Source: Bacteroidia bacterium (GTDB lineage: Bacteria; Bacteroidota; Bacteroidia; AKYH767-A; 2013-40CM-41-45). Taken from it: a stretch of DNA of 64,000 nt. Below, piece after piece: positions 1,381-49,577 of the stretch. The notes beneath the pieces are model-generated. The model saw only the letters and a list, made by a program, of their open reading frames with translations. It was not told the origin of the DNA and searched no databases. The position numbers were made by a program, and so were the translations under genes. The first letter of the stretch is position 1; each line of letters starts with the position of its first letter. Location: NCBI GenBank assembly GCA_035341855.1, contig DAOQWA010000007.1, positions 18,646-82,645 on the forward strand, read 5' to 3'.

Positions 1381-1481
1381 TTGGGCTTTACGAATGAATA
1401 TTTATATATTGTACTTGTCAATGTGGGTTTATTCAACTCCTTTGATTAAGTGAATAAGTAAATTTTTTGCGCCCGCTTTTT

Positions 1482-3158: not shown

Positions 3159-3238
3159 CCCGGGACTGAGAAATCTGAGATTACTCTGATAAAAGTTAAT
3201 TGTTTTATACCTGCGACATAGAATTAAAAGACATTTTT

Positions 3239-3868
3239 ATGAATCATGTAAAATCAAGACCAATATCAGATAGAAAATTTACAATGGACAGGTATATAAA
3301 ATTAAAGGAACATATACTCGGGTATTTAAAAGCAAGATTGCCGGATAATTTATATTACCACAGTTATAATCATGTGATCGATGTATTGGGTGCAGCTGAA
3401 TTTCTTGCAGAGAAGGAAGGCTTAAGCCCGATAACGAAAGAGCTTGTAAAAGTTGCAGCATTGTTCCATGATTCAGGCTTTACAATAGAAGCCAGGGAGC
3501 ATGAGAAATTAAGTTGTGATATTGCGCGGGAATTGCTTCCGGAATTTGGTTATACTTTAGCAGAGATAGAACTGATAGCTGCTATGATCATGGCAACAAA
3601 GTATCCGCAAAGTCCGACTAACTTAATGGAAGAAATAATTTGTGATGCCGACCTTGATTATCTGGGTCGCGAGGATTTTTTTGAAATTGGAGGCTTACTT
3701 TTAACTGAACTGAATGAATCTGGCCGGTTTAAAACTGAAAAGGACTGGAATCATTTTCAGGAAAAGTTCATCAGTTCACATAAGTATTTTACAAAAACAG
3801 CTCAGGAACTTCGTGAACCTAAAAAGTTGGAGCACTTAAAAATGATCAGAGAAAGTTTGAAAGATTAA
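3239..3868 (+). CDS. HD-domain metal-dependent phosphohydrolase
   Basis: HD motifs are present (YHSYNHVIDVL, ALFHDSGF, CDADLDYLG). The start is chosen at the internal ATG 3239, downstream of the listed ORF start at 3200. Confidence 0.7.
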   Translation: MNHVKSRPISDRKFTMDRYIKLKEHILGYLKARLPDNLYYHSYNHVIDVLGAAEFLAEKEGLSPITKELVKVAALFHDSGFTIEAREHEKLSCDIARELLPEFGYTLAEIELIAAMIMATKYPQSPTNLMEEIICDADLDYLGREDFFEIGGLLLTELNESGRFKTEKDWNHFQEKFISSHKYFTKTAQELREPKKLEHLKMIRESLKD

Positions 3869-3903
3869 TCCGAAAAATTATAAAAGGATTTTGCAAAAAA
3901 AAA

Positions 3904-6027: not shown

Positions 6028-6270
6028 TTATTGTTTTTTAATAACAAAGAACTTCTGTACAGTTGTTTTGTCATCCTTGCTTACAGAAAGGAAATAAACA
6101 CCCGGAGTCCATGTAGATGACTCGATATCTATTCTATGTTCTTCGTTCGCTTTCACGAAGCGATCAAACAGTATGCTTGTTCTTGAGCCATTGATCTGAT
6201 AAACTTCAACAACAACCTGCCCATCATTCTTGCCAATAAACTTTAATACTGCATCCTGAGATGTTGGATT
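6028..6270 (-). other. T9SS type-A C-terminal sorting domain of the giant protein
   Basis: C-terminal ~80 aa: ELYPNPTSQDAVLKF...VVVEVYQINGSRTSILFD...GVYFLSVSKDDKTTVQKFFVIKKQ. Confidence 0.75.
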
Positions 6271-12200: not shown

Positions 12201-15200
12201 AAATATATGTTCCGGCGCCATAGTTGCTGAATACGCCTTCTCCTATATAAGGAGCTAAGCCACCAGATGCTTGCACTTCGATTTGTGCGTCATTGTACCC
12301 ATTACAGCTTACGGTTGAGATCACCGTACAACTTGCTGTAAGATTACAAGGGCCATCGTTAATAGTGACTGCACATGAATTAGAAGAAGAGCCACAATTA
12401 TTTGCGTCATCAACATAGTAGTAGTAAGTCCCTGCAGATAAATTTGTGTGAATTCCATCATCACCACTATAAGGCGGGGTTCCACCTGTGGTTGTAACTA
12501 AAGCAGCTCCATCATTTCCACCTGCGATAGTTACATCATTGATTGTTGAACATACGAACTCTAACAAAGCAGGTTCGTTGACGGTTACCGGCAAGAGACC
12601 GCTGCCGCAACCATTAGCATCAGATCCTCCTATGAAGTACTGGCCTGGTGCCAGGCTATTGAATACACCGGAATTATTTTGTAAGTAAAGGCTATTAGGT
12701 CCATAAAGATAATACGAATAGCCTGTAGGGTAGGTGATAAGGTCTGTTTGAAGAGTACCGCCTGAAATACCATAAAATTCCAATTGTCCGTTGTTATAGC
12801 CGAAGCATGTAACATGAGTAGGGTCAACTGATCCGGTTACAACAAGAGTTGGTTGTGTAACAGTGACTGAGTCTGTATCCGTACAGCCTACTGAGTCTGT
12901 TATTGTAAATACGACCGTTGTGTCTGTTCCGATAAATCCGTTTATAGTCTGCAGTCCTATTCCGGAATAAGGTGCAGTTCCTCCGGCAGCAGTTACGTCG
13001 ACTTCAAACACATATCCATTGCAGTCAGGTGTACCAGCATTCAATGAAATTGTTGGAGAAGAGTTTGAGATGACCACATTAACGCTTGCAACCTCAAGGC
13101 ATCCAATGGCAGAAATTACTCTAATGTAATATGTTCCTGTAGTGTGTGCATGATTTGAATCCAAAGGGATAGTCATATCAGAATCTTCCCAATATGTAAA
13201 TGTTAAAGGCGATGTTGAATAAGTTCCGGCGGTGATGGATGGAGCACTAAGATCAATAGGTGATCCATTACATGAAGGAGGTGGGTCGTTCACGATCAAT
13301 GATACTGAATCGCTAAGGACAGTAGTAGAGATTGTGTCAGTACAGCCGTTGTTGTAGAAGATAATTGCTTCATAAGTACTTCCACTTGTAACAGATATTT
13401 GATTTGTAGTCTGAGATCCGGGACTCCATAAATATCCGGTGAAAAAATGATCACTCAAATAGGTTGAGTTTAACCAGGATGTTGAACCATATATTGTAGC
13501 AGGATAAAAGGTTGGAGAAGGAAAAGAAGGGCCGGGAGGATTGGATCCCGGACCGACAGGTCCTTGAGAATTTCCGTACCAGTCATATCCGAAGTCCTGA
13601 GTTTCTGTTCCATATCCGTCGTACATAGGGATATAACAGATCAGGGATGAAGGAACATAGTCTGAAAAATTAATATATAAGCCATCATTGATATCAGATT
13701 GACTCAATGCACCTTCCCACACTCTCACCTCATCAATAGAACCATTGAAGAACATTGTATTTGATACAGGAACCGACATAGCGATTCTGTATTCTGTTCC
13801 GGAGGTGTTGTATGTTCTGATGCCGGAACCTGCAGGCTGGCCATTAACGTATAACTGTACAGTTGTACCGTCATAGCTGGCTGCAACATGAGTCCATGTA
13901 TTCAGTGGAATTGGAATATTTCCAGTTACACCGTTTGAAGGCGAACCGAACATGAGATTAGAGCCCATCAAAAACAAGCCGCAGCTTTCGGACATATTAT
14001 CATTGATTTGACCATAGTTGAAGATAACTGAATTTTGATTTATTGTCGGGTTGATCCAGGCTTCAATTGTTCTGGAATCATCACCCGGAGGCAATAAATA
14101 ATTTTCACCTTCTGCATAATCAGTGCTGCCATTAAAATATAATGCATAGTCTTCAAAAGTCCTTATTTCAAGTGTGACAGGAGAAGAATTACAGACTGAA
14201 TTATAGTCCGGTCTTGTGATCTCCGCTACAGGATTGGTGTATACCTGGAGATTTAATGAGCTGGAACTACAGCCATTATCATCTGTCGCGCTAATCGAAT
14301 ATGGACTTTGATAGGTGGGATAAAGATTTGTGGTGTCACCCCAAATTTGATAAGGACCAGTCCCACCTGTAACTGCTACCGAAACACTTCCTGAACTTCC
14401 CTCACAAACAAATAATGGATTTGGTGTTATGGTAAGTGTCATTTCATCCGCTTCAAGGATGGTCACAGCTTGAGGTCCCTGAGAAGTTACGCATCCTGTT
14501 GCATCACTAACGTATATCATATAGGTTCCGGCATGCAGGTTGCCGAAAAAGCCATACTGATTGCTGTCATAATATTCATTGATACCGGTAATAGTAACAT
14601 CATAATTCACACCTGAGATAGGTACTCCGCCGCTTATACCGGAAACTGTTACACTTCCATCATATCCATCAAAGCATTCATTGTCTGTTTGGGAAATTGT
14701 GTAACTTAAATTCGGTGAGTCGTTTAGCACAAACGGGTAAGTAGCACTACCGGTGTAAGCAGGATCACTGCTGGTAACTCTCATCCGGTATGCCAATGAA
14801 GTTGAATTAACAGACGGAAGATTTATCTCAATAAATCCTGATGAAGATGAGCTGCCATAGGTTCCTACAACGACAGGTGAGTTGAAACTACCTGTGCTGT
14901 CGCTTAATTCTACATTTATGATGTTTCCGCTGTTAAAGGCTATGTCTGAATTGTATGGTAAAAACAAATAGCTGCCTTCACAGTAAGAAGAATCAACCTG
15001 TCCAAGGTTCAGAAAAGATCCCGGTGGAACTGCCTCCCCAACTTGGAAGTCGCTGAATGTCGTCAGATTGTTGACTTGTATCGAAGTGGCTGTTCGACTT
15101 ACAACATTCACTGGTTGCCAGCCATTTCCGGTATTATACTTTTCTACATTGAACAAAGAATGATCGGCTGCGGAATCAATTTCTGTAGCATCCCAATTCA

Positions 15201-16995: not shown

Positions 16996-17099
16996 GGCAT
17001 TGAGGGGGCATTCAATAGGATTTTCATTTCGAAGTCCGGATCGTTCTTGGTTTTTTACGACATAAGAATTCAAGGTAGATTTAGCGACCATAAGAGTTT

Positions 17100-35849: not shown

Positions 35850-37346
35850 ATGAACCTATCATTACTGATACTACTTCCTGCAATAACAAGCTTGATAATT
35901 CTCTTCTCCGGAAAAGAACAAGCTAAGAGAATAGCACTGGGTGGTGCACTTATTCAATTAGGGCTGACGATATTTTTGTTGATGTGTTTTTGGGCCGATA
36001 GTAATTTACCCGGCGCCACGCAGTTTATTTACGAGTACAATGCTTCCTGGTTTCCGGCTTTGCAGATCAATTATCATGTAGGAGTCGATGGAATTTCTGT
36101 TGCAATGATTTTGCTGACAGCTTTCGTTGTATTTGCAGGGATCCTGATGTCCTGGAAGGTTGATCGAATGCAAAAGGAGTTTTTCTTCTTGCTCACGATT
36201 CTCGGTGCCGGGGCCTATGGTTTTTTTATTTCGCTGGATCTTTTCCTTATGTTCTTTTTCCTGGAAGTGGCTGTAATTCCCAAGTTCATGCTGATAGGAA
36301 TATGGGGAAGTGGCAAGAAAATATATAGCGCAAACAAATTGGCACTGATGCTTATGGCCGGCTCTGCATTGGTTCTAATAGGAATGTTTGGAGTCTACTT
36401 CTTGTCAAATATCGGTACTGCCAGTTTTGACCTTGTACAGATTTCTGCGAATGGAATTCCGAAAGATGTCCAGCTTTACTTTTTTCCATTTCTATTTGTA
36501 GGCTTCGGCGTGTTTACTGCACTGTTCCCATTTCATACATGGGTGCCTGATGGTCACTCTTCTGCACCAACTGCAGCATCCATGTTCCTCGCCGGTATAT
36601 CGATGAAACTTGGAGGCTATGGTTGTTTACGTGTTGCTACCTACCTGATGCCGGAAGCTGCAGAGCATTATTCCTGGATAATTATTTTACTCGCTACGAT
36701 TGCTATAATTTATGGAGCCTTCGCCACCATGATGCAAACGGATCTGAAATATATGAATGCCTATTCTTCTGTCAGTCATTGCGGCTTTGTACTACTAGGT
36801 ATAGGAATGCTAACACCTACTGCAGTTACCGGTGCTGTATTGCAGATGGTATCACATGGACTAATGACAGCTCTGTTCTTCGCTGCAATAGGAATGCTGT
36901 ACGAAAGAACGCATACCCGTGAAGTCGCTAAACTGGGAGGTTTATTGAAGGTGATGCCTTTCATAAGTACGGTGTTTTTTATAGCCGGTTTATGTTCTTT
37001 AGGATTACCCGGACTGAGTGGTTTTGTGGCTGAGATGACAGTTTTTGTTGGTTCATGGGAGAGGGTAGAATTACTTTACAGGCTCGCTACAATATTAGCT
37101 TGTATGTCTATTGTTGTTACTGCCGTATATATTCTCAGGGCAACCGGTAAAGCTATGATGGGGCCCGTATTAAATCCTGAATTCAACAAGCTTAAAGATG
37201 CTGCTTGGAATGAAAGGCTGGCAGGCGTTGTTCTCATCGCCGGTATCTTGGCAATGGGGGTGATGCCATTCTGGTTGAAGGATCTTGTTAGCCCCGGCGC
37301 TTTAAATATTATTGAACAAATAAATGGAGTAGCATTACTCAAATAG
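35850..37346 (+). CDS. nuoM: NADH-quinone oxidoreductase subunit M
   Basis: 498 aa antiporter-like subunit (HTWVPDGHSSAPTAASMFLAGISMKLGGYG). Confidence 0.95.
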   Translation: MNLSLLILLPAITSLIILFSGKEQAKRIALGGALIQLGLTIFLLMCFWADSNLPGATQFIYEYNASWFPALQINYHVGVDGISVAMILLTAFVVFAGILMSWKVDRMQKEFFFLLTILGAGAYGFFISLDLFLMFFFLEVAVIPKFMLIGIWGSGKKIYSANKLALMLMAGSALVLIGMFGVYFLSNIGTASFDLVQISANGIPKDVQLYFFPFLFVGFGVFTALFPFHTWVPDGHSSAPTAASMFLAGISMKLGGYGCLRVATYLMPEAAEHYSWIIILLATIAIIYGAFATMMQTDLKYMNAYSSVSHCGFVLLGIGMLTPTAVTGAVLQMVSHGLMTALFFAAIGMLYERTHTREVAKLGGLLKVMPFISTVFFIAGLCSLGLPGLSGFVAEMTVFVGSWERVELLYRLATILACMSIVVTAVYILRATGKAMMGPVLNPEFNKLKDAAWNERLAGVVLIAGILAMGVMPFWLKDLVSPGALNIIEQINGVALLK

Positions 37347-37352
37347 GATTGT

Positions 37353-38762
37353 ATGTCAGAAATATTTTCTTTGCTTAAACATGAGTTCTGCCTTATAGGC
37401 ATGATAGTGTTTTTGCTGCTAATTAAAATTCGGTCAAAAGAGTGGTCAGGCGAATCCTTGATCAGGATGATGAATGTGTTTTTAGTTTTCAATCTGATTT
37501 TCGGTTTCTTTTATAATTCAACAGGAGAGTTGTTCGACAGTATGTTTCGTAATTCGGGGCTGATTGCCTTTGAAAAGAACATTCTTAACCTGGCCTTATT
37601 GATCATTCACTTGCAGTCCGTAGCATGGATGAAAGGACATAAGCACCTGACGGAATTTTATCTGCTTTTGCTTAGCTCTATGACAGGTATGTTCTTCCTG
37701 CTTTCGAGCGGGAACTGGTTGATGTTTTATCTTGCATTGGAACTTTCAACAATTCCGCTGGCTGCACTCTGTAATTTCGATCTTGAAAAAAAGCGATCCG
37801 GAGAGGCTGCAATGAAGATGATTATGTCCTCGGGATTTTCATCCTGTATTTTATTATTTGGGCTCTCATTATTATACGGCAGTACAGGAACAATTGATTT
37901 TGCTGAGATGGCTTCGGCAATCGAGGGTACCCCTTTGCAGATATTGGCATTTATATTTGTATTCACAGGATTTGCATTTAAGCTTTCGGTAGCGCCATTT
38001 CACTTTTGGACTGCCGATGTCTATGAAGGATCACCTGTTGCTATAACGGCTTATTTGTCGGTTGTTTCTAAAGGGACCGTTGTGTTTGTTTTAGCTTCGA
38101 TATTTTATACCGTATTTAATGGGATAAGTGAAATATGGTATGATGTGCTCGTCATTTCAGCCGTTATAACTATGACTATTGGAAATTTGTTTGCCTTGCG
38201 TCAGAATAATATGAAAAGGTTTCTGGCCTTTTCATCTATTGCTCAGGTTGCCTATCTGCTTATTGGTATCTCAGGCTCATCAGATTTGGGGATGAGTTCT
38301 TCAATTTATTTTGTGTTGATCTACGTATTCTCGAATTTGGGAGCATTTGCCGTTGTGGCACATATTTCTGCTCACACCGGTAAGGAGAATATCGGTGACT
38401 ACAATGGTTTGTACAAGTCAAATCCGGGAATGAGCTGGTTGTTGGGTATTTCGTTATTCTCTCTGGCGGGAATTCCACCTACTGCAGGTTTTTTTGGAAA
38501 GTTGTTCTTGTTGACAGCAGGGGCTGAGGTAGGGAATTGGCCACTGATCATCTTTGCAGCACTTAATATGGTAGTATCGCTTTATTACTATTTACGGGTG
38601 ATCCGAGCGGTGTTTATGGAAGATGAGATTCAGCCATTGTCAAAGTTAGATATTGGAACTTCTTCAAAAATAGCAATGTTGTTTTGCGTGAGTGGAATAT
38701 TGCTGCTTGGTTTCACCTCCGGATTGTACGAGTACATTCTTTCATTGAGTTACGGACTTTAG
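37353..38762 (+). CDS. nuoN: NADH-quinone oxidoreductase subunit N
   Basis: 469 aa antiporter-like subunit (FHFWTADVYEGSPVAITAYLSVVSKG). Confidence 0.9.
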   Translation: MSEIFSLLKHEFCLIGMIVFLLLIKIRSKEWSGESLIRMMNVFLVFNLIFGFFYNSTGELFDSMFRNSGLIAFEKNILNLALLIIHLQSVAWMKGHKHLTEFYLLLLSSMTGMFFLLSSGNWLMFYLALELSTIPLAALCNFDLEKKRSGEAAMKMIMSSGFSSCILLFGLSLLYGSTGTIDFAEMASAIEGTPLQILAFIFVFTGFAFKLSVAPFHFWTADVYEGSPVAITAYLSVVSKGTVVFVLASIFYTVFNGISEIWYDVLVISAVITMTIGNLFALRQNNMKRFLAFSSIAQVAYLLIGISGSSDLGMSSSIYFVLIYVFSNLGAFAVVAHISAHTGKENIGDYNGLYKSNPGMSWLLGISLFSLAGIPPTAGFFGKLFLLTAGAEVGNWPLIIFAALNMVVSLYYYLRVIRAVFMEDEIQPLSKLDIGTSSKIAMLFCVSGILLLGFTSGLYEYILSLSYGL

Positions 38763-38789
38763 TAAATACGGGAATTAGATAATATCGCC

Positions 38790-39167
38790 ATGGCTATCAA
38801 TAAAAATCATGAGTTCGACGATCTTGAAGGTGTTAAATGTGCCATTGTAGAAAAAAATGTCTCTGAGGAAAGGAAGCTGTTCTTAAAAAAACTTTTGGAG
38901 TTTAATGGCTACACAGTAATTGTCGTTCCGAGTCCGGCCACCAAAGCTCAACCTATTGCTGCAGCGGAAGGGGAAGAGTCAAAAGTAGTAGAGGCACAAC
39001 CTAAGACCTATACGGTAGGTGTTACAGACACTGTCTTTAACACTACAAATGCCATATACGGTCGTCTACTACGCACACCATCAGGTAGGGTGGTAACGAT
39101 GGCTTACTGGAAGGAAAAGGAGTCGGAAGCCAGCGATAATATTCCTTATTACGAGAGGAATATCTAA
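38790..39167 (+). CDS. hypothetical soluble protein immediately downstream of nuoN (possibly co-transcribed)
   Basis: 125-aa ORF with ATG start, 27 nt after the nuoN stop. No recognisable motif. Confidence 0.45.
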   Translation: MAINKNHEFDDLEGVKCAIVEKNVSEERKLFLKKLLEFNGYTVIVVPSPATKAQPIAAAEGEESKVVEAQPKTYTVGVTDTVFNTTNAIYGRLLRTPSGRVVTMAYWKEKESEASDNIPYYERNI

Positions 39168-39203
39168 TCTGAAGCTAGATCAATTATCTGATTAATGACT
39201 TTT

Positions 39204-40637
39204 TTATTGGTTGTAAAAAATCGGAGTGCTATAACCTTCTGATCTTTTTAAGGGTTCTCCGCTGATATCAGGCAATGAAAAATAAAAGGTAGCCCCGACA
39301 TTAGATTCTGCTTCTGCCCAAACTTTTCCTCCGTGACGTTCAATAATGCGTTTAACGATACTTAGTCCGACACCTGTTCCCGTAAATTCATCGGAAGTAT
39401 GAAGTCGACTAAAGACACCGAATAATTTTTTATAATATTTCATGTCAAATCCGGCGCCATTATCTTTTACAAAATATATTTGTTCATTATTTTTGAAGTA
39501 GTTGCCAATTCGAATGAGAGGGCTGTCTTTCTTACCGGAATATTTCAATGAATTAGAAATTAAGTTGACCCATACCTGGTAAATCAGTTGCTTGTCACAA
39601 TAGGATTCAGCGAGTTTGTCGAGTTGGACGGATGTCTTTAGGTCCGGGTCTCTTGGCAGGAGTTCAAACAAGATCCGGTCTACCATTTCACTCATATTAA
39701 CTTTTTCTTTTAGGATCTCCTGTTTACCTATTTTTGAAAATTCCAGTAATTCCTCAACCAAAGTATGAATTTTAGTTGTGCTGGAAATTATTCTGGATAG
39801 GAGTCCTTTCGCCTCTTCCGGAAGATGAGACTCATATTCCATCTGTAAGATTTCTGTCAGGGTAGATATTCCTCTCAAGGGAGATCTCAAATCGTGTGAT
39901 ACCGTATGATTGAAAGCACTTAGTTCATGGTTAGCTGCCTCAATCTCTTCCAATTTAGATTTCAGTTGATTGTTCAGGTGCAAGATCTCTTTCTCTTGCT
40001 TGATTCTAAAGTCAATATCCCGAACAACACATTGAAAACCGTCAACTCTGTCACCTTTCATCCTCAGAATAACAGTCTGCTCAACCCATCTGGAATTTCC
40101 TTGTTTGTCAATTATTTCAAAATCAGAAATCGTCTCCGGGATCTTGTTCTCAAATTGGGATAAGTAGAATTCAGCAACCTTCTTTAGCATTGACGGTTTA
40201 ATCAATGTTGTAAAATGAGCTCCGATCAATTCATCCGGCTTATAGCCATAAACTGTCTCAATCCTTCTGTTGAAATAAATAAAAGTTCCTTTATAATCAG
40301 TCATGTAAATGACTTCAGCGGCATCTTCAATTAAACTCTTGAATTTCTCGTTCTTTTTTTCACTAAGATCTCTAAGGCTTTGGTCAGTCTTTAATCCTAG
40401 AATCAGTCCGGCAAACATAAGGACCAGGGGAGCCAGGTCGATGATTTGTAATAAGACGTTGTGAAGATGTAAATGCAGAATAGCATCAAGAGTAATGCTT
40501 TGGGAGTTTTCGGCAAGAGCCAGAAGGGTGCCGGCGATTGGAAAGGTAAAACCCAGAAAAAGACCGCAGAACCCAAATTGAAGAGCATTTTTTGAAAAAT
40601 TTCTTCCTTGGGGAGTGTAATTTGGCTTTAGTATCAT
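39204..40637 (-). CDS. membrane-anchored PAS-domain sensor histidine kinase
   Basis: N-terminal TM segments, a PAS-like region, HisKA H-box (HDLRSPLRGIS) and HATPase_c (DNGAGFD...GTGVGLSIVKRIIERHGG). Confidence 0.85.
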   Translation of the reverse strand: MILKPNYTPQGRNFSKNALQFGFCGLFLGFTFPIAGTLLALAENSQSITLDAILHLHLHNVLLQIIDLAPLVLMFAGLILGLKTDQSLRDLSEKKNEKFKSLIEDAAEVIYMTDYKGTFIYFNRRIETVYGYKPDELIGAHFTTLIKPSMLKKVAEFYLSQFENKIPETISDFEIIDKQGNSRWVEQTVILRMKGDRVDGFQCVVRDIDFRIKQEKEILHLNNQLKSKLEEIEAANHELSAFNHTVSHDLRSPLRGISTLTEILQMEYESHLPEEAKGLLSRIISSTTKIHTLVEELLEFSKIGKQEILKEKVNMSEMVDRILFELLPRDPDLKTSVQLDKLAESYCDKQLIYQVWVNLISNSLKYSGKKDSPLIRIGNYFKNNEQIYFVKDNGAGFDMKYYKKLFGVFSRLHTSDEFTGTGVGLSIVKRIIERHGGKVWAEAESNVGATFYFSLPDISGEPLKRSEGYSTPIFYNQ

Positions 40638-40827
40638 TTACTGTTTTATTTCAATATTCGCTTCATGCAGAACCGAATAATTAGAAACCCCAAGCTCACC
40701 AGGTTCATCATTACTCTAGCCGGTCGCAACAGCTAGAAATATGTAAATCATTGAATCCTGGTATAGTGAGCCATTATGAGCTTTATTTTCACATAGCTCC
40801 GGGGTTAACAGCATTGATACTTTAAAA

Positions 40828-41259
40828 CTATTTAAATGTTGCGTTCACTTCTGCATTGAGTTCATGAAGCTGTTCGCGACTAAGAGGTTTGATTAGGTGC
40901 TTGATAATATGTTGGTCCTTATGGATCCTTTGAATATCCTCCTCCTTAATTGCTGAGGTGAGCATCACCACCTTGCAGTTTTGAATCACTGAGTCGGGAA
41001 GTTGCCTGAATGTTTCCATAAAATCGAAACCATCCATTGCGGGCATATTTATATCTAAAAATATAAATTGTGGTAAAGAAGTAGGGTGTTGACTGTTTTC
41101 TTCAAGGTATTCCAGGGCTTTCTTTGCGGAATTAAATTCCATGATATCTGATGCAAATTGTGAGCCGGTTAACATTCTTTTGCTAATGAATGCATCAACT
41201 TCTGTATCATCAATAAGCATCACCCTTCTTGCATTCAAATTTTTCTCACTCGAGGTCAT
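40828..41259 (-). CDS. stand-alone response-regulator receiver (CheY-like) protein
   Basis: VMLIDDTEVDAFISKRML...FLDINMPAMDGFDF...VVMLTSA. There is no output domain. Confidence 0.8.
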   Translation of the reverse strand: MTSSEKNLNARRVMLIDDTEVDAFISKRMLTGSQFASDIMEFNSAKKALEYLEENSQHPTSLPQFIFLDINMPAMDGFDFMETFRQLPDSVIQNCKVVMLTSAIKEEDIQRIHKDQHIIKHLIKPLSREQLHELNAEVNATFK

Positions 41260-41391
41260 TTATTCTGGTATTTAATAATAATATCAATTCTGTATAGTCT
41301 TTCAAATTTTTCAATATCCGGATTTTCTATTCATTCCGTTAAGGATCAATTTTTTACCGTCCGGGTCGCAGTTAAATTGAATGCTTTTATG

Positions 41392-41781
41392 TCAGGAGAC
41401 CGGAATTTTACCTTGCAACGAAGTAATAATATCTCCGATGCGATCAAGTTCCGTTGACTTATCGAGAAAATGATCGGCTCCAAGACCAAGGCACAATTCC
41501 TTATATTGCATTGTCGGATAGTTAGTAAGCATTACCACACGAGAATCCTTATGAGTGGTCTTGATCCGTTTTAATACTTCAATTCCGTTGATGCCGGGCA
41601 TTTTGATGTCGAGGAGGACCAGTTCAGGATTAATTAATTTCATCAGGGTAAATGCCTCTTCTCCATTTTTGGCATGAGCTATTGATTTAATAAAATGAAT
41701 CTCACTCAGAATTGAATATAATCTTTGAACGATCAGATTGGAGTCTTCTACGACCATCACTTTAACTTTTCTCTCCTCCAT
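41392..41781 (-). CDS. stand-alone response-regulator receiver protein
   Basis: KVMVVEDSNLIVQRL...VLLDIKMPGINGIEVL...VVMLTN. There is no output domain. Confidence 0.8.
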   Translation of the reverse strand: MEERKVKVMVVEDSNLIVQRLYSILSEIHFIKSIAHAKNGEEAFTLMKLINPELVLLDIKMPGINGIEVLKRIKTTHKDSRVVMLTNYPTMQYKELCLGLGADHFLDKSTELDRIGDIITSLQGKIPVS

Positions 41782-42065
41782 GGTTATTATTTGGCAGCGC
41801 GAAGAAATAAAAACTTTCTTTTGCTTGTACCTTGAAACGCAAAGTTCAGCCCTAAAGTTTATTGAAATTTATGTAGTTGTTTGCACTACAAGCTTTCAGC
41901 AGGTTCCGGTTGAGGAAATTATAATCTGTGTTAAAAAAATTGTGTCTCAGATTTTCAAACCTGCCGGGCTTTATTGTAAGGGAAGATTTGTTATCGGTAA
42001 ATTGATTGAAAGTTCAGCCTGTGAAAAGAATTATTATTAGGCATCTGCACATTTGTGCTTTCCGG

Positions 42066-42725
42066 TCAATTCAGCAAATTATTTGAAAGAGCATAATGTG
42101 TCAGTTCAGAACTGGAACGCATCTGCATCTTTTCCAAGAGCCGCATTCTATAGGTACTGATAGTATTCACGCTTAAAGACAGGTTTTCAGCGATTTCAGT
42201 TACTGACTTACCTGATGCAATCAGTTTCAATACATCAAATTCACGGTCAGAAAGTAATTCGTGTGGCATTCCGGAATGTCCTTTTTCTACTGAATATAGA
42301 AGTTTTTCTGCCACCGAATTATTGATGTACTTATGACCTTTCAGGATTTGTTCAACTGCTTTTACCAATTCATCAGGTGCGCTCTCTTTTGTCAAATATC
42401 CTGATGCTCCTGCCTTTAGAACACGCACTGCATATTGATCTTCCGAATGAATGCTTAATACTAAGACAGGAATTTGTGGAACTTCGATATTAAGTTGTTT
42501 TAAAGTGTCAAGGCCATTTTTACCGGGCATTGACAAGTCTGTAATAATTATATCCCAGTTTTGGCGTTTGGCATGAAGCAAAAGTTCTGTACCATCAGAA
42601 GCTTCAGTAAATTGAGCACTGCGAAAATGATCCATTAGAATTTGGATAAGGCCCTTTCTAACGACAGTATGGTCGTCAGCAATTAATATACGTAGTGCTG
42701 CATCCATGTTATTAGTTAGTGACAC
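42066..42725 (-). CDS. NarL/FixJ (LuxR-HTH) family response regulator
   Basis: REC domain (ILIADDHTVVRKGL...IITDLSMPGKNG) plus a C-terminal LuxR HTH (LSDREFDVLKLIASGKSVTEIAENLSLSVNTISTYRMRLLEKM). Confidence 0.9.
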   Translation of the reverse strand: MSLTNNMDAALRILIADDHTVVRKGLIQILMDHFRSAQFTEASDGTELLLHAKRQNWDIIITDLSMPGKNGLDTLKQLNIEVPQIPVLVLSIHSEDQYAVRVLKAGASGYLTKESAPDELVKAVEQILKGHKYINNSVAEKLLYSVEKGHSGMPHELLSDREFDVLKLIASGKSVTEIAENLSLSVNTISTYRMRLLEKMQMRSSSELTHYALSNNLLN

Positions 42726-43074
42726 CCAATTATCCTATCATGTATACTGTTTTTTTAAATTATAATATAGTAGAAATTTTGATTCCAATTAATTAATAAA
42801 TATCAATTTTCTATCTGTATCTATTAAACACTGGAACTACTATATTTCATTCTAAAGAACAAATTGATTAAAGTTTAAAACAATTGCTGTAGCAGCGTAA
42901 ACCAATACACTAAAGATATAATTTAATTTTTTGATTCCCAAAAATAATCATTCGATTTTATTGAAATTTTAAGGATTTCTGTCTTTTTCCTGAGCTATGT
43001 TTAGTTAATTCCTTTCCTGATCAAAGTCATTTAATCGTCTGAGTATGGTCATATAGGGAATGAGATGTCAGGTA

Positions 43075-43112
43075 TACTTTTGGTTTGAGTTTTTATTCAG
43101 GTTTTTATTCAA
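43075..43112 (+). promoter_or_regulatory. candidate nos promoter: TAnnTTTG -7-like element followed by a tandem direct repeat GTTTTTATTCA x2
   Basis: TACTTTTG lies at 43075-43082. It is followed by gtttttattca-g-gtttttattca at 43089-43111, about 55-75 nt upstream of the cytochrome c ATG and in the AT-rich divergent region shared with the LuxR-type regulator gene. Confidence 0.3.
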
Positions 43113-43164
43113 AGTAATTAAACACAGTGTCAAATAGAGTTTGAATTAATTTAAAAAAAATATT

Positions 43165-43692
43165 ATGATAACAGGCTTAGAAAGCAAATATTTTACAGCA
43201 ATAAAAAAAATCAGCATTCTTATTCTCTTAGCAGTTTTATCTGTCTCATTGTACAGTTGTTCATCATCTAATGAAGAATCTTCGACAGAATCAAGCGAAT
43301 CTACTGAGTCGGGAAACTTAATGAAAGATGCCGAAGAAATGGAAGATGATGGTATGGGCTTTGGTCCGGTAAAAAGCCTAAGCATTCCTGCTGAAATAGA
43401 CGAAGCTCTTGCGGCTGAAGGAATGAAGCATTTTGAGGCAAAGTGTACTGCTTGCCATAAGTTTGAAAAAGAAAAGTATGTAGGTCCCGGATTGTTAGGC
43501 GTGACCAAAAGACGTAAGCCTGAATGGATCATGAACATGATCCTGAACCCACAGGAAATGACTCAAAGAGATCCTGTAGCAAAGGAGCTTTTTGCGACGT
43601 ATCTCACGCAAATGACCAATCAGAATGTCACCGAGCCGGAAGCCAGAAGCATGTATGAGTACTTCAGAAAGATGGACGCTACATCAAATTAA
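43165..43692 (+). CDS. lipoprotein mono-haem c-type cytochrome (nos-associated)
   Basis: Lipoprotein signal (LLAVLSVSLYSC) and a single CTACHK haem-binding motif in a class I cytochrome c fold context. It sits immediately upstream of nosZ, as is typical of clade II clusters. Confidence 0.8.
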   Translation: MITGLESKYFTAIKKISILILLAVLSVSLYSCSSSNEESSTESSESTESGNLMKDAEEMEDDGMGFGPVKSLSIPAEIDEALAAEGMKHFEAKCTACHKFEKEKYVGPGLLGVTKRRKPEWIMNMILNPQEMTQRDPVAKELFATYLTQMTNQNVTEPEARSMYEYFRKMDATSN

Positions 43693-43735
43693 TTTGTCAA
43701 TTCCAATTACACCTACAAAAACAGGAGGAATATCT

Positions 43736-45700
43736 ATGAAAAATGTAACATTGAATAAATTATCAACATCAATCTTATTACTTGCAACTGTTTTTCTTGC
43801 CTCTTGTGGCGGAGGGAGGGAGAAAAAGCAAGTGACATCAAATGATGCCGCTTCCAAAGTGTATGTCGCACCCGGCAAGCTTGACGAGTTTTATGAATTT
43901 TTATCAGGTGGGTTCAGCGGACAGATAGGAGTTTATGGACTTCCTTCCTGCCGTTTGTTGAAAGTCATACCTGTTTTCGCAGTTAATGCCGAAAATGGAT
44001 GGGGATTTACAGAAGAGACCAAGCCAATGTTGAACAGTACTCATGGTTTTGTTCCCTGGGACGATTCCCACCACCCCGAACTTTCAATGACTGATGGTAG
44101 TCCTGACGGGCGTTGGTTGTTTATCAATTCCAATAATACACCCAGGATAGCAAGGATTAATCTATCAACATTTCGAACAGAGGAAATTCTTGAAATACCA
44201 AATAGCGGAGGAAATCATAGCTCTCCTTTTGCAACAGAAAATACAGAGTATGTTGTAGCGGGTACACGATTTAGTGTTCCTATCGAGGGTAATAAAGATA
44301 TTCCAATTTCTACGTACAAAGAGAATTTTCAGGGAACATTAACTTTCGTAAAAGTAGATAAAGATCATGGCGACATGGATGTTGCATTTCAAATTATGAT
44401 GCCGCCATTCGATTTTGACCTCAGCCATTGTGGAAAAGGTCCTTCAAGCGGTTGGTTCTTTTTTTCATGCTATAATTCTGAGCGTGCTCACACACTTTTA
44501 GAGGCAAATGCTTCTCAAAACGATAAAGACTTTATCGTAGCTGTGAACTGGAAGTTGGCTGAAAAGTATTTAGCCGAAGGCAAAGCAAAAGATTTTCCGG
44601 GCGAATATTACAGCAATCGTTATGACGACAGGAAACATTCAGCCAAGTCAACAATTCACCGCTCAACTAAAATGCTTTATCCAAAGGACTGTCCGGATAT
44701 GATTTACCTGATGCCTTGTCCGAAGTCCCCACACGGAGCTGATGTAGATCCTACAGGAGAGTATATTGTTGGAGGAGGTAAGTTGTCTACAGTTATCCCT
44801 GTGTTCTCTTTCAGTAAAATGCAGGCAGCCATTGCTGCTAAAGATTTCATCGGTGAAGTCGACGGATTGCCGATTCTTAAATATGAATCAGTGATAGGTG
44901 GTGAAGTTCAAAAGCCGGGCCTCGGTCCTTTACATACTGAGTTCGACGGCAAAGGCTTTGCTTATACATCAATGTTCGTTTCATCGGAAGTTGTGAAGTG
45001 GAAGCTTGGAACCTGGGAGGTCGTTGATAGAATTCCCACATATTATTCAATCGGACACCTTTCTATACCCGGCGGTGATTCAAAGACACCTTGGGCAAAA
45101 TATTTAGTTGCCATGAACAAAATTACGAAGGACAGATATCTGCTCACAGGTCCTGAATTAAATCAAAGTGCGCAGCTTATTGACATCACCGGTGATAAGA
45201 TGAAGCTGTTGAATGACTTCCCTACTGTAGGTGAACCACACTATGCACAAGGTATACCTGCTGATCTGGTAATGAAAAATCAGGTGAAGGTGTTCAAGCT
45301 TGAAGATAATGAGCATCCTTATGCATGTAAATCAGAAAAAGATGCGCGTGTTGAGAAGAAGGGTAAAACTGTTCATGTATACATGACAAGCATCAGGTCA
45401 CATTTTTATCCTGACAATATTGAAGGAGTAACAGTAGGGGATACAGTTTATTTCCATGTTACCAATTTGGAGCAGGATTGGGATACTCCTCACGGTTTTG
45501 CTATCAAAGGTTCCACTGACGCTGAATTGCTGATCATGCCGGGTGAGACTGCCACATTAAAATTCATTGCTAAGAAGCCTGACATTTATCCATTTTACTG
45601 TACAGATTTTTGCTCTGCACTCCATCAGGAAATGCAAGGATACCTTAGGGTTTCGCCTGTCAGCTCTAATGTCCCGATTACCTATTCGACAGGCAAATAA
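43736..45700 (+). CDS. nosZ: nitrous-oxide reductase, clade II (Sec/lipoprotein-type)
   Basis: Start placed at ATG 43736, preceded by AGGAGG. Signal with lipobox (LLLATVFLASCGGG) and no twin-arginine motif. A beta-propeller region with CuZ-type histidines (WDDSHHPELSMTDG). C-terminal cupredoxin CuA motif H..(34)..C..FCSALH..M. Confidence 0.95.
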   Translation: MKNVTLNKLSTSILLLATVFLASCGGGREKKQVTSNDAASKVYVAPGKLDEFYEFLSGGFSGQIGVYGLPSCRLLKVIPVFAVNAENGWGFTEETKPMLNSTHGFVPWDDSHHPELSMTDGSPDGRWLFINSNNTPRIARINLSTFRTEEILEIPNSGGNHSSPFATENTEYVVAGTRFSVPIEGNKDIPISTYKENFQGTLTFVKVDKDHGDMDVAFQIMMPPFDFDLSHCGKGPSSGWFFFSCYNSERAHTLLEANASQNDKDFIVAVNWKLAEKYLAEGKAKDFPGEYYSNRYDDRKHSAKSTIHRSTKMLYPKDCPDMIYLMPCPKSPHGADVDPTGEYIVGGGKLSTVIPVFSFSKMQAAIAAKDFIGEVDGLPILKYESVIGGEVQKPGLGPLHTEFDGKGFAYTSMFVSSEVVKWKLGTWEVVDRIPTYYSIGHLSIPGGDSKTPWAKYLVAMNKITKDRYLLTGPELNQSAQLIDITGDKMKLLNDFPTVGEPHYAQGIPADLVMKNQVKVFKLEDNEHPYACKSEKDARVEKKGKTVHVYMTSIRSHFYPDNIEGVTVGDTVYFHVTNLEQDWDTPHGFAIKGSTDAELLIMPGETATLKFIAKKPDIYPFYCTDFCSALHQEMQGYLRVSPVSSNVPITYSTGK

Positions 45701-45714
45701 AGGAGAGAGAGTGA

Positions 45715-45745
45715 GCGGGGGGACAATGTTCCCCCGTTTGCTTTT
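45715..45745 (+). terminator. GC-rich hairpin plus T-tract after nosZ (possible partial terminator/attenuator)
   Basis: gcGGGGGGAcaatgtTCCCCCgtttgctttt lies between nosZ and the next gene. Confidence 0.45.
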
Positions 45746-45816
45746 ATTACTGCATCTAAGACATTACAATTAGAAGGGACTGATAATTGACCGTTCCATC
45801 AAAAATTAAATTTTTC

Positions 45817-46416
45817 ATGAAAAAGAGATCAGCAATACTAATAGCTCTTGCGTCCTTATTAATGATCGGGAGTTTATTCACACCGCTTTGGGATATAACC
45901 CTGGAGGCTCCACAGTATCCTGAAGGATTAGGAATGAAAATATGGCTTGCCAAGTTATCCGGTGATGTTTCTACTATCAGCGGCTTGAACCACTACATAG
46001 GGATGAAGGCAATCAGTGAGGATATGTTTCCTGAATTTGGGTATATGAAGGGCATCGTTATAGCGATCATTATTTCTGGCCTGCTCGTTGCAGTGATCCG
46101 AAAAAAATGGTTGTTTGCTTTTTGGTTCTTAAGCTTCCTGATCATTGCTGCATTAGGAGTGTATGATTTTTGGTTATGGGAATATGATTACGGACACAAT
46201 CTTGATCCCAGGGCAGCAATAAAAGTGCCCGGAATGAGTTATCAACCCCCTCTCATTGGTTGCACCGAACTGCTAAATTTTTATGCTTGTTCTTTCCCGT
46301 CAATCGGAGGATGGCTCATTGTTGTCTCCGGAACGACTTCTTTCCTGGTTTTTCTTGATGAGTTTTTTCTGGGTCGGATAAAGAGAGAAAGAACTACCAA
46401 AGTTGTGCCTGCATGA
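45817..46416 (+). CDS. NosB-like 4-TM membrane protein (clade II nos-associated)
   Basis: About 200 aa with four hydrophobic helices and no cofactor motif. Its position directly after nosZ matches nosB in clade II clusters. Start chosen at ATG 45817, since the listed ORF begins at TTG. Confidence 0.5.
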   Translation: MKKRSAILIALASLLMIGSLFTPLWDITLEAPQYPEGLGMKIWLAKLSGDVSTISGLNHYIGMKAISEDMFPEFGYMKGIVIAIIISGLLVAVIRKKWLFAFWFLSFLIIAALGVYDFWLWEYDYGHNLDPRAAIKVPGMSYQPPLIGCTELLNFYACSFPSIGGWLIVVSGTTSFLVFLDEFFLGRIKRERTTKVVPA

Positions 46417-46865
46417 AATTGAATTTTAAATTTGAAATTCATTTGATTGTCGTCCTTATAGCGACTTCTCTCATGGCTTGTACTCGCGGACCCAGTCCAA
46501 TTGAAATTGGTAAGGATCTGTGTGCACTTTGTAAAATGACCATAATGGACAAGCGCTATGGTGCAGAACTTATTACTGATAAAGGAAAAATATATAAATT
46601 TGACAGTGCTGAGTGCTTAGTTAATTATCTTAAAGAATATCCGGAAAGTGAGCATCCTCTTCAATTGATCATGGTCATTGATCATGCACTTCCCGGAGAA
46701 TTTATTAATGCGAAAGAAGCTTTTTATTTACATAGTGAGAAACTATCTAGTCCGATGGGCGCCAATGTTACTGCTTTACATTCTAAAGCTATTGCGGAGG
46801 ACTATCTTGCTCAGTATGGTGGTGAGATTTGGACCTGGGAAGAATTGTGCAGGCAAGTCCAATAA
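46413..46865 (+). CDS. nosL: copper-chaperone lipoprotein NosL
   Basis: Lipobox (SLMAC) and the NosL core DLCALCKMTIMDKRYGAELI...KFDSAECLVNY. Confidence 0.85.
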   Translation: MKLNFKFEIHLIVVLIATSLMACTRGPSPIEIGKDLCALCKMTIMDKRYGAELITDKGKIYKFDSAECLVNYLKEYPESEHPLQLIMVIDHALPGEFINAKEAFYLHSEKLSSPMGANVTALHSKAIAEDYLAQYGGEIWTWEELCRQVQ

Positions 46866-48117
46866 ACTTGCATATTTGATTTGCTTGCTTATTCCGGCTG
46901 TAGTTATCCTGCCTTTTATCTCTGAAGCCGGTGTAAAAAATGTCGGAAATAATTCTGCCTATAAGACTATTAAAAAAGCCTTAGAGGATTGCGATGATGG
47001 GGATACTTTAATCGTCGATGGAGGCTTGTATTCTGAGGGGGAGATTTCCATTACTAAAAGGATTTGTTTGTTAGGATTGAATAATCCTGTGATTGATGGA
47101 AAGTCAAAGGATGCTGTTCTGATAATTCGTGCATCAGGATGTATCGTGAGAGGATTTACAATAAAGAATTCAGGTAAAAGTGATATAGAGGAAATTGCCG
47201 GTATAAGACTTGAAGATGTGCAAGCATGTCAGATTGATTCGAATTATTTTTTGAATAATTATTTTGCAATCTATCTTGCAAACTCAAGTTATTGCAGATT
47301 GATGTCAAACAGGATAGAGGGTTTTGCTAAAACGGAAACATCTTCAGGCAATGGAATTCATCTTTGGAAAGGCCATCATAACACCATATTGAACAATCAT
47401 ATAAGCGGTCACCGTGATGGAATATACTTTGAGTTTGTAATGTATAGTTCAATAATTGGAAATTTGAGCGAGAAAAATCTTCGTTATGGATTGCATTTTA
47501 TGTTTTCTGATGATGATATATACAAATACAATACTTTTCGTGAGAATGGTTCAGGAGTAGCAGTGATGTACACGAGAAATGTCTTGATGCAAAATAATAA
47601 GTTTGAGTCGAACTGGGGCAGTGCTTCCTTCGGCCTCCTGTTAAAAGATATTTCCAGGAGTCTGATACGTAATAATGTGTTCTCGAAGAACACAACGGGC
47701 CTATATATAGAAGGCTCTAATAACACAATAATAATAAACAACGAATTTGTAAGGAATGGCTGGGCTGTCAGGATACTTGGTGATTGTTATGAAGATACAA
47801 TTACAGAGAATAATTTCAGATCTAACACTTTCGATTTGGCAACAAATGCTTCCAGAAACATGAATTATATTAATAGGAATTTCTGGGATCAATATAGCGG
47901 GTATGATCTGGATAAAGACTTTACAGGTGACATTCCATTTCATCCGGTCAGTTTTTATTCAAAGATCACCGAAGAGTCGCCGCATACTTTGATGATGTTG
48001 CATAGCTTTTTTGTGGATCTCCTGAATCAAACTGAGCGCATTGTTCCGACAATTACACCTGAAGAATTCAAAGACAAAGAGCCGCAGATGAAACCGATAG
48101 TATATGATAAAAATTGA
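46816..48117 (+). CDS. nosD: periplasmic copper-binding beta-helix protein NosD
   Basis: Right-handed parallel beta-helix repeats (...IRASGCIVRGFTIKNSG..., NGIHLW..NTILNNHISGHRDGIYFE, etc.). The likely ATG at 46816 overlaps the nosL 3' end by about 50 nt. The listed ORF start at 46678 is further upstream, in another frame relative to nosL. Confidence 0.85.
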   Translation: MVVRFGPGKNCAGKSNKLAYLICLLIPAVVILPFISEAGVKNVGNNSAYKTIKKALEDCDDGDTLIVDGGLYSEGEISITKRICLLGLNNPVIDGKSKDAVLIIRASGCIVRGFTIKNSGKSDIEEIAGIRLEDVQACQIDSNYFLNNYFAIYLANSSYCRLMSNRIEGFAKTETSSGNGIHLWKGHHNTILNNHISGHRDGIYFEFVMYSSIIGNLSEKNLRYGLHFMFSDDDIYKYNTFRENGSGVAVMYTRNVLMQNNKFESNWGSASFGLLLKDISRSLIRNNVFSKNTTGLYIEGSNNTIIINNEFVRNGWAVRILGDCYEDTITENNFRSNTFDLATNASRNMNYINRNFWDQYSGYDLDKDFTGDIPFHPVSFYSKITEESPHTLMMLHSFFVDLLNQTERIVPTITPEEFKDKEPQMKPIVYDKN

Positions 48118-48817
48118 AAAATTAAATAAATCCTTTACTACACTTGATGTTCTGAAAGATGTCAACCTTGTTTTTGACCGGGGAGAGGTAGTTTGTTTGA
48201 TCGGGCCAAATGGTTCGGGAAAAACTACTCTCATCAAGTGTTTATTGGGATTAGTTATCCCGGATGCAGGTTCTGTCTATTATAAGGACAAGCCGGTACT
48301 TGGTACCTGGGCCTATAGAAGGGAGTTTGGATATATGCCTCAGATCAGCAGATTTCCTGAGCATATCAAAGTGCGTCAGGTATTTCAGATGATGAAGGAT
48401 TTGAGAAGTAATGATGGAGTAGTTGATGAAGATTTATTGCGTGCATTTTCAATTGATAGTATCATGGAGAAGAGGATGGCATATCTTTCCGGCGGAACCA
48501 GGCAAAAAGTTAGTGCTGCTCTTGCTTATCTTTTTAGTCCGGAAGTTTTAATTCTAGATGAACCTACTGCCGGTTTGGACCCTATATCTTCTGAGCAATT
48601 GAAAGCAAAAGTGATGAAGGAAAAACACAAAGGAAAGTTGACACTCATAACTTCACATAACATGACAGAAGTTGAGGAGCTCGCAGATAGAGTTATTTTT
48701 ATTGTTGAAGGGAGTATTCAATTTAGTAAAACTGTGGAAGATATAAAGAATGAAACATCTGAGTCGCGATTGGGTAAAGCGCTAGCCGTAATGATGGAGG
48801 GCTTTGTGCATGCTTAA
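48104..48817 (+). CDS. nosF: ABC transporter ATP-binding protein NosF
   Basis: Walker A (GPNGSGKTT), ABC signature (LSGGTRQK) and Walker B (LILDEPTAGLD). It overlaps the nosD stop. Confidence 0.9.
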   Translation: MIKIEKLNKSFTTLDVLKDVNLVFDRGEVVCLIGPNGSGKTTLIKCLLGLVIPDAGSVYYKDKPVLGTWAYRREFGYMPQISRFPEHIKVRQVFQMMKDLRSNDGVVDEDLLRAFSIDSIMEKRMAYLSGGTRQKVSAALAYLFSPEVLILDEPTAGLDPISSEQLKAKVMKEKHKGKLTLITSHNMTEVEELADRVIFIVEGSIQFSKTVEDIKNETSESRLGKALAVMMEGFVHA

Positions 48818-49577
48818 GGTGTTGAAATACGTAGTTTATGATATTATGAGAAGTAAGATGGTGCTCATCTATACATTGTTAATGTTTTTTCTGTGCTTTG
48901 GTCTCTTTTATTTAGGTGCTGATTATGCCAGTACACTTGTAAGTCTTTTACATGTGATATTACTTGTGGTGCCATTGATATGTATAGTTTTTGCTACGAT
49001 TCATTTTTATAATTCGAGAGAATTTATTGAGATGCTGCTGGCACAACCAATAGACAGAAATAGCATTTTCTTTGGAGAGTACCTGGGACTTGCGGGGTCA
49101 TTGGCACTTTCTTTATTAATAGGGTTAGGTTTACCTGTACTCCTGTGGCAGCCCACTGAACCGGCATTGTACCTTGTAATTGTTGGATTGTTGCTGACTT
49201 TTATCTTTACTGCACTTGCCTTTTTAACTTCTGTCCGAAGCCTCGATAAAGCCAAAGGTATTGGCTCTGCATTATTATTGTGGTTTTATTTTGCTGTTTT
49301 ATTTGATGGAATTGTATTGTTGATCTTGCATTATTTTAATGATTACCCTCTAGAAGAGCTGGTGCTTGTTTTAACAGCTTTGAACCCGATCGATATGGGA
49401 AGAGTATTGATCTTATTGAAATTGGATTCCTCAGCTTTAATGGGGTACACGGGGGCATTGTACAATAAGTTTTTTGGAAGTAGTTTCGGACAGATATTTT
49501 CGATCACCGTGCTTTTAATATGGGCTTCAGTTCCTGTTCTCAGAGCGAGAAAGATTTTTGCCAAGAAAGATCTATAA
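48804..49577 (+). CDS. nosY: ABC-2 type permease NosY
   Basis: 257 aa with six TM helices. It overlaps the nosF stop. Confidence 0.8.
   Translation: MCMLKVLKYVVYDIMRSKMVLIYTLLMFFLCFGLFYLGADYASTLVSLLHVILLVVPLICIVFATIHFYNSREFIEMLLAQPIDRNSIFFGEYLGLAGSLALSLLIGLGLPVLLWQPTEPALYLVIVGLLLTFIFTALAFLTSVRSLDKAKGIGSALLLWFYFAVLFDGIVLLILHYFNDYPLEELVLVLTALNPIDMGRVLILLKLDSSALMGYTGALYNKFFGSSFGQIFSITVLLIWASVPVLRARKIFAKKDL

Follow-up and report, generated by a model that had tools for sequence, protein, structure and literature searches.

Four two-component signalling genes lie at positions 39204-42725 of a 64,000-nucleotide stretch of a Bacteroidia bacterium genome (contig DAOQWA010000007.1; hereafter the window), between a nuo operon and a divergently transcribed operon for clade II nitrous oxide (N2O) reductase, nosZ and its accessory genes. 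We propose, with a probability of roughly 0.55, that this cluster is an ordinary two-component set assembled in layers of different age, that its adjacency to nos is inherited synteny, and that nos itself is run mainly by a Crp/Fnr-type factor. The old layer would be a core of NarL-type response regulator and stand-alone receiver (REC129) set within a conserved chromosomal backbone, and served in relatives by a HisKA_3 kinase. The changes proposed for the window's clade are the loss of that HisKA_3 kinase, the presence of a second receiver (REC143), and a membrane PAS/HisKA kinase at the 3' end of the cluster.

All four genes are on the minus strand. The response regulator (42066..42707, 213 amino acids from its ATG) is of the NarL/FixJ type, with Response_reg (PF00072, 98 bits) and GerE/LuxR helix-turn-helix (PF00196, 61.5 bits) domains in Pfam; the longest open reading frame (ORF) spans 42066-42725 (219 amino acids from a GTG at 42725), and since the homologues have 213 amino acids the start is likely the ATG at 42707. 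Its top match in the PDB is NarL (1A04, 96 bits, E 2e-26), and its scores against the NCBIfam equivalogs are all under cutoff (UvrY/GacA 168.5 against 280, NarL 126.4 against 250, NarP 121.5 against 343, FixJ 88 against 255). The receivers REC129 (41392..41781, 129 amino acids) and REC143 (40828..41259, 143 amino acids) match Response_reg alone, at 83 and 63 bits respectively, and the translations of all three receiver domains have an intact acidic pocket (DD/ED), acceptor aspartate (LDI/TDL), threonine or serine, and lysine. The sensor histidine kinase (39204..40637, 477 amino acids) contains a single cytoplasmic PAS domain (45 bits), HisKA (PF00512, 53 bits; H-box SHDLRSPL in the translation) and HATPase_c (79 bits), with two N-terminal hydrophobic stretches, at residues ~20-42 and ~60-82, read by eye from the sequence; the NCBIfam FixL model NF041777 gives it 87.8 bits, the cutoff being 850. 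The set thus has the classical two-component constitution, with a DHp H-box and GHKL ATPase in the kinase and complete phosphorylation residues in the receivers. Gaps of 284, 132 and 190 bp separate the genes, so that the cluster is not a tightly coupled operon. The ORFs and Pfam domains bear out the sequence-only reading of this locus as a PAS kinase, two single-domain receivers and a NarL-type regulator, the ORF map agrees with the placement between nuo and nos and with the orientation and order that it gave, and the AT-rich divergent spacer of ~440 bp that it described is indeed present (42726-43164, 439 bp, guanine-plus-cytosine fraction 0.25; 42708..43164, or 457 bp, when counted from the ATG at 42707).

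Regulator contexts in relatives were read from metagenome contigs and by exact-protein look-ups; the homologues split into 16 clusters of at least 76% identity and then thousands at no more than 65%. The relatives share a conserved backbone in which a glycosyltransferase, RNase HII, a DUF3352 gene, a gene for 532 amino acids, an OmpA-like gene, nosYFDLBZ where present and a cytochrome c gene lie to one side of the two-component genes, and orf125 and nuo to the other. The regulator and REC129 give trees congruent with that of nuoM, which has three clades, nos being missing in clade 3 only; it follows that the core of regulator and REC129 was inherited vertically. In clade 1 (the window, L001, L084, L117/118 and L126/127) nos is present together with the regulator, REC129, REC143 and a tail PAS/HisKA kinase. 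Clade 2 likewise has nos, with a multi-PAS HisKA_3 kinase 12 nucleotides upstream of the regulator, two receivers and no tail kinase in L119/120, and with the regulator, two receivers and no kinase in L002. In clade 3, where nos is absent, L121/122, L123 and L124 have a CHASE3-PAS-HisKA_3 kinase, the regulator and REC129, L128 has the regulator and REC129 and no kinase, and L129 has a fragmented kinase with the regulator and REC129. These nos-less relatives, four or five lineages in all, thus keep the regulator and REC129 at the same chromosomal place, and there the two-component genes are divergent from a cytochrome c homologue (45-46% identity) that has the OmpA-like gene as its next neighbour. 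The synteny of the backbone and the persistence of the core without nos mean that shared ancestry accounts for the adjacency seen in clades 1 and 2. We note that the nosZBLDFY block itself (43736-49577 in the window) is a presence/absence polymorphism within an otherwise collinear backbone.

The stable unit is the pair of regulator and REC129. REC129 orthologues score 109-158 bits across clades 1-3 and 75-88 bits in the outgroup L125; a regulator gene followed by a REC129-like gene recurs at many loci without nos, and the trio of HisKA_3 kinase, regulator and REC129-like receiver is found at 50-62% identity in unrelated contexts.

A view from the side of nos was provided by a NosZ scan of one genome per species, which returned 80 clade II loci (L001-L080, 63-89% identity). 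A comparable cluster is present at two of these, L001, which is wholly syntenic from nuoM to nosY, and L002, which has regulator-REC-REC without a kinase; it is absent at the other 78, 58 of which include 4.4 kb or more of sequence upstream. A few Gemmatimonadaceae loci have an unrelated NarL-type gene (36% identity) within 10 kb. The sequence-only reading had offered the cluster as a candidate control system for N2O respiration and named its conservation beside nosZ as a check; that conservation holds within a family-level group of about nine lineages, but the core is kept without nos in clade 3 and the cluster is missing from 78 of the 80 nosZ loci, so that the linkage is broken in both directions and control specific to nos is not sustained. 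Among the relatives the two-component genes are not co-inherited with nos, as a dedicated nos regulator would be. Other regulators adjoin nos in the same survey, an Rrf2-family (NsrR-like) gene at 32 of the 80 loci and a Crp-family gene at six; the Rrf2-bearing loci belong mostly to Ignavibacteria, Kapaibacteria, Gemmatimonadota and Saprospiraceae, and the loci with the tandem boxes described below are mostly without Rrf2. In a Chitinophagales metagenome-assembled genome (MAG) that has the tandem boxes, unrelated stand-alone receivers lie on either side of the nos cluster (L003, 136-531 and 7717-8118), and another precedes Rrf2-cytochrome c-nosZ in a Calditrichia MAG (L025, 8327-8845); these CheY-like genes near nos may represent an independent association.

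The spacers of the relatives cannot be aligned save for one block near the cytochrome c gene. In the window a predicted pair of tandem FNR/CRP-like boxes (TGATCAAAGTCA, 10 nucleotides, TGAGTATGGTCA) occupies 43018..43051 on the plus strand, and exactly 23 nucleotides past the second box begins TACTTTTG (43075..43082, plus strand), which matches TAnnTTTG, the Bacteroidetes -7 promoter consensus; there is no -33 TTTG at this promoter. The boxes are 22 bp apart centre to centre; the second would be centred at about -42 and the first at about -64, transcription being predicted to start near 43088-43090, and the consensus of the whole module is TGAyN4rTCA-N10-TGAkN4rTCA-N23-TAnnTTTG. The tandem pattern occurs once in the 64-kb window and 25 times in 1.63 Mb of loci, where ~0.5 matches are expected, and the strict pattern that includes the -7 box has 13 matches as against none in shuffled sequence; the spacing of 23 nucleotides (occasionally 22-24) between box and TAnnTTTG is kept in ~15 independent promoters. 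The cytochrome c-nos promoter is accordingly best described as a predicted activator-type Bacteroidetes promoter with a class II-like Crp/Fnr geometry. Immediately downstream, in the predicted 5' leader of the cytochrome c gene, 43089-43112 is a tandem repeat, perfect but for one position (GTTTTTATTCAG/GTTTTTATTCAA), that L109 and the other relatives do not conserve.

Within clades 1 and 2 the tandem box lies upstream of the cytochrome c gene in all members that carry nos, and L002, L119/120 and L126/127 have a second copy between nosZ and nosB, whereas it is missing from the cytochrome c promoters of the nos-less clade 3. Loci of Cytophagales, Chitinophagales and other Bacteroidota that lack the two-component cluster have the module too, and there it precedes cytochrome c/nosZ, nosB, a P-type ATPase, a radical-SAM (HemN-like)/cupin/COX1 group, or a Crp-family gene (loci with the module include, besides the window, L003, L008, L011, L025, L026, L029, L037, L038, L039, L049, L054 and L077). 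In L038 a box lies 42 bp upstream of a gene with cNMP_binding and HTH_Crp_2 domains, in the same register, and in L037 Crp genes adjoin the nos cluster. Being present with nos, absent without nos, and found without the cluster, the box tracks nos and not the two-component genes, and at the level of loci the predicted box and the two-component genes are doubly dissociated. As an observation in its own right, the module looks like an undescribed Crp/Fnr-type regulon signature in several Bacteroidota orders.

The two boxes and their positions indicate that primary control of nos is most probably exerted by a Crp/Fnr-family factor, which would be encoded elsewhere in the genome. Their half-sites correspond to the core of TTGAT-N4-ATCAA, an FNR box already described at nos promoters (PMC1274295), and published work assigns Crp/Fnr factors to such promoters both in clade I (DNR, FixK2) and in clade II (NssABC of Wolinella, candidates in Nitrosophilus) (PMC1274295, PMC5582078, PMC11539149); the clade II nos regulators reported so far, those of Wolinella and Nitrosophilus, are Crp/Fnr proteins (PMC11539149). 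The window shares with the systems of DNR/NNR/FixK2, NssA/B/C and Nitrosophilus the TGAyN4rTCA palindrome at a class-II-like distance (PMC1274295, PMC11539149), and differs from them in having two boxes 22 bp apart coupled to a TAnnTTTG -7 element with no -33 TTTG.

Other candidate operators were sought in the spacers. Exact inverted and direct dyads of 4-5-mers with gaps of 0-14 nucleotides are no more frequent in eight spacers than in shuffles, the clade 3 spacers have no 8-10-mers common to one another, and there are no FNR-like boxes in the gaps within the cluster or upstream of nuo. A generic sigma-70 and terminator scan did no better than shuffles (20 promoters against 16.6, three terminators against 3.9) and is uninformative for Bacteroidetes.

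The kinases of this locus have a history of their own. NarL-type regulators are typically partnered with HisKA_3 kinases, and a HisKA_3 kinase is directly upstream of the regulator in L119/120, in L121-124, in the outgroups L125 and L130, and at many metagenomic loci; in the relatives this is a large, multi-PAS protein encoded 12 nucleotides upstream of the regulator. In its REC + GerE architecture the window's regulator resembles NarL, VraR, RcsB and DevR, which normally have HisKA_3 partners, and in its relatives such a kinase lies immediately upstream. The window itself departs from NarL/FixJ-family pairs both in its equivalog scores, which are below cutoff, and in having no HisKA_3 (PF07730) kinase in the whole 64 kb; the adjacent pair of NarX/NarL type is therefore lacking in the window and present in L119-L124. 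The window kinase is instead of the HisKA PF00512 class and is encoded at the opposite, 3' end of the cluster. Its orthologues (47-99% identity) are restricted to the nos-linked loci of clade 1, and no locus carries both a HisKA_3 kinase and the tail HisKA kinase. This complementary distribution suggests that, in the window's clade, the tail PAS/HisKA kinase took over from the lost HisKA_3 kinase. Traces of loss are seen elsewhere: upstream of the L128 regulator, at ~8900-8975, there is a relic of 21-24 amino acids from the C-terminus of a HisKA_3 kinase (62% identity, E about 1e-5), showing that the kinase gene was deleted there, and in L129 the HisKA_3 kinase is split into three ORFs. No such relic is detectable in the spacers of the window, L001 or L126, L128 being the only case.

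How these proteins might signal to one another bears on the further suggestion that the cluster forms a multi-step phosphorelay, which our analysis does not uphold. Pfam assigns no Hpt domain to the kinase, the receivers or the regulator, there is no Spo0B-like phosphotransferase between the receivers, and the gaps of the cluster contain no ORF of more than 47 amino acids on either strand, apart from a 100-amino-acid antisense ORF (41738-42040) spanning most of the gap between REC129 and the regulator, which was judged spurious and left unscanned; the kinase is not a hybrid and terminates after HATPase_c. The cluster, which lacks Hpt both as a domain and as a separate gene, is therefore no relay of the His-Asp-His-Asp kind. 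The BarA/UvrY, Spo0F-Spo0B-Spo0A and ArcB relays also place several receivers beside one kinase and one DNA-binding regulator, and the window differs from these in lacking an Hpt or Spo0B-like protein or domain and in its non-hybrid kinase. Structured RNAs are likewise absent, with zero Rfam matches in 38700-43800 at E up to 1.

The most likely mechanism would be a one-step, branched His-to-Asp pathway. The PAS/HisKA kinase would autophosphorylate on a cytoplasmic or membrane signal and pass its phosphate to the stand-alone receivers, which would serve as competing acceptors or modulators; it would probably phosphorylate the NarL-type regulator too, as the substitute for the lost HisKA_3 kinase, and the phosphorylated regulator would then bind DNA at its targets. 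Branched pathways in which one receiver is a phosphate sink are exemplified by CheA-CheY1/CheY2 of Sinorhizobium. In a PDB search the best matches to the kinase core are bacteriophytochrome kinases and HK853, which use stand-alone receivers, and the window resembles HK853-RR468 and bacteriophytochrome/Cph1-Rcp1 in having a similar HisKA/HATPase core and adjacent CheY-like proteins with intact phosphorylation residues. A kinase homologue at 42% identity has a stand-alone receiver next downstream, but that receiver scores 45 bits to REC143 as against 66 bits to REC129 and is not specifically related to REC143.

These observations leave several explanations to be weighed against inherited synteny with Crp/Fnr control. 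The cluster might after all control cytochrome c-nos in this family, either directly, through a poorly conserved operator alongside a Crp/Fnr-type activator, or indirectly, through a Crp/Fnr factor in the manner of FixLJ-FixK2. The divergent adjacency is kept in about nine lineages of two clades (the window, L001, L002, L083/L084, L109, L117/118, L119/120 and L126/127), whose regulators are 63-100% identical, and the divergent neighbour is a cytochrome c gene in all three clades; PAS sensors are moreover suited to sensing redox state or oxygen. The FixL-FixJ-FixK2-nos cascade of Bradyrhizobium diazoefficiens provides a precedent, with a PAS + HisKA kinase and a NarL-type regulator upstream of FNR-type boxes at a nos promoter (PMC5582078, PMC6710368), and such an arrangement would reconcile both observations if the window's regulator acted upstream of the Crp/Fnr factor. 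The parallel is incomplete, however, with FixL and FixJ scores far under their cutoffs (88 of 850 and 88 of 255 bits), no fixK-like gene nearby, and two extra stand-alone receivers. Set against these points are the persistence of the core without nos in clade 3, the missing cluster at 78 of 80 clade II nos loci, the failure of the spacer screens to find a conserved operator, and the repeated loss of kinases (L002, L128, L129), while vertical backbone synteny fully accounts for the adjacency. We regard control of nos by the cluster as unlikely, though deserving of serious attention; its positive support comes from adjacency. Still less probable is a more specific version, in which the kinase-swapped, branched pathway of this uncultured Bacteroidia family adds a second, PAS-sensed input atop the Crp/Fnr activator at cytochrome c-nos, or acts upstream of it, and the second receiver was acquired with nos; if true, clade II N2O respiration would have in this pathway its first two-component regulator.

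Some of the evidence weighs directly against our preferred reading of inherited adjacency. The nine or so lineages in which regulator and receivers adjoin the divergent cytochrome c-nosZ genes are one such point. Another is that the REC143 family is confined to the nos-bearing clades 1 and 2 (homologues score 152 bits in L117, 70 bits in L126 and 60-75 bits in L119, with none in clade 3), which is a possible functional tie to nos; this co-occurrence represents a single evolutionary event and is on that account weak evidence. The Crp/Fnr factor postulated here has no counterpart in the window, as neither a Crp nor an Rrf2 homologue is encoded in its 64 kb. NarL-type operators can be short and degenerate, so that the k-mer and dyad screen may have missed one, and the kinase partner and the targets of the regulator are themselves inferred. 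Could the NarL-type regulator itself bind the tandem TGA-N6-TCA boxes and activate nos? The boxes do sit in the spacer common to the regulator gene, and a dimeric helix-turn-helix protein could read a 12-bp palindrome, two dimers serving two palindromes. This is nonetheless very improbable: the boxes stand at nos and anaerobic-type genes of Cytophagales, Chitinophagales and other Bacteroidota where no regulator of this kind is encoded nearby, one of them precedes a Crp-family gene by 42 bp, and the nos-less loci of the regulator orthologues have no box. The tandem boxes are not known to match sites of the NarL family. Their half-sites and position at about -42 fit the FNR/CRP consensus TTGAT-N4-ATCAA (PMC1274295). 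We give equally little credence to the cluster being a decaying remnant without current function, its regulator orphaned and its tail genes unrelated passengers. The independent loss of the HisKA_3 kinase in several lineages, its fragmentation in L129 and the large intergenic gaps would suit such decay, but all four reading frames are unbroken and their catalytic motifs complete, and in clade 1 the regulator is 76-100% conserved and the four-gene order persists down to 47% kinase identity, which is indicative of purifying selection. The cluster is real and intact, and probably a functional two-component pathway of branched form.

The surrounding genes complete the picture of the locus. Upstream of the cluster are nuoM/N (35850-38762), followed by orf125 (38790..39167, plus strand), which encodes a small conserved protein and is convergent with the kinase gene. 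Neither Pfam nor NCBIfam matches it. As it comes after nuoN in each of the three clades (48-63% identity), it belongs to the conserved backbone; it may be an uncharacterised accessory of the nuo operon. On the other side, the plus-strand nos operon begins with a gene for a lipoprotein-type mono-haem cytochrome c (43165..43692; Pfam Cytochrom_C), followed by nosZ of the clade II, Sec-dependent type (43736..45700, with 43736 as the real start; TIGR04246, 939.6 bits) and by nosB-like, nosL, nosD, nosF and nosY (45787..49577), assigned from Pfam NosL and from homology to the annotated NosD, ABC_tran and ABC2_membrane genes of L117. The mechanically called nosD ORF (46678-48117, 479 amino acids from a TTG at 46678) overlaps nosL by 188 bp; as the NosD proteins called in relatives have 416-439 amino acids, the true start is probably near 46800-46870. 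Directly 3' of nosZ, within the 86-bp gap to nosB-like, 45716-45745 is a G+C-rich hairpin (CGGGGGGAC-AAT-GTTCCCCCG) followed by TTTGCTTTT, which could be a terminator or attenuator between nosZ and the accessory genes; the same gap in L002, L119 and L126 contains the second tandem box and not a hairpin. Near the left end of the window, 1467-5925 is a cyclic-nucleotide signalling cluster comprising a hybrid kinase with an N-terminal cNMP-binding domain and HisKA, HATPase_c and REC domains (1467-3158), an HD-domain protein (3200-3868) and a TPR-adenylate/guanylate cyclase (3904-5925, minus strand), and beside it is a single ORF of 3687 amino acids (6028-17091, minus strand).

Finally, how clade II nosZ is regulated in Bacteroidota is important for the prediction of N2O sinks in soil and wastewater, and we found no paper describing a nos regulator for Bacteroidota or two-component control of clade II nos in this group. 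The cluster adds new members to known families and is of modest interest, chiefly for the replacement of a kinase around a stable regulator-receiver core; as a by-product of its analysis, the promoter module is of more use. Attention accordingly shifts from the adjacent two-component genes to a cis-element, two boxes 22 bp apart and 23 nucleotides before the -7 element, which in several orders of Bacteroidota is a mark of nos and other low-oxygen genes and presents a testable handle for finding its binding protein and for telling in advance in which MAGs nos is induced when oxygen is low.

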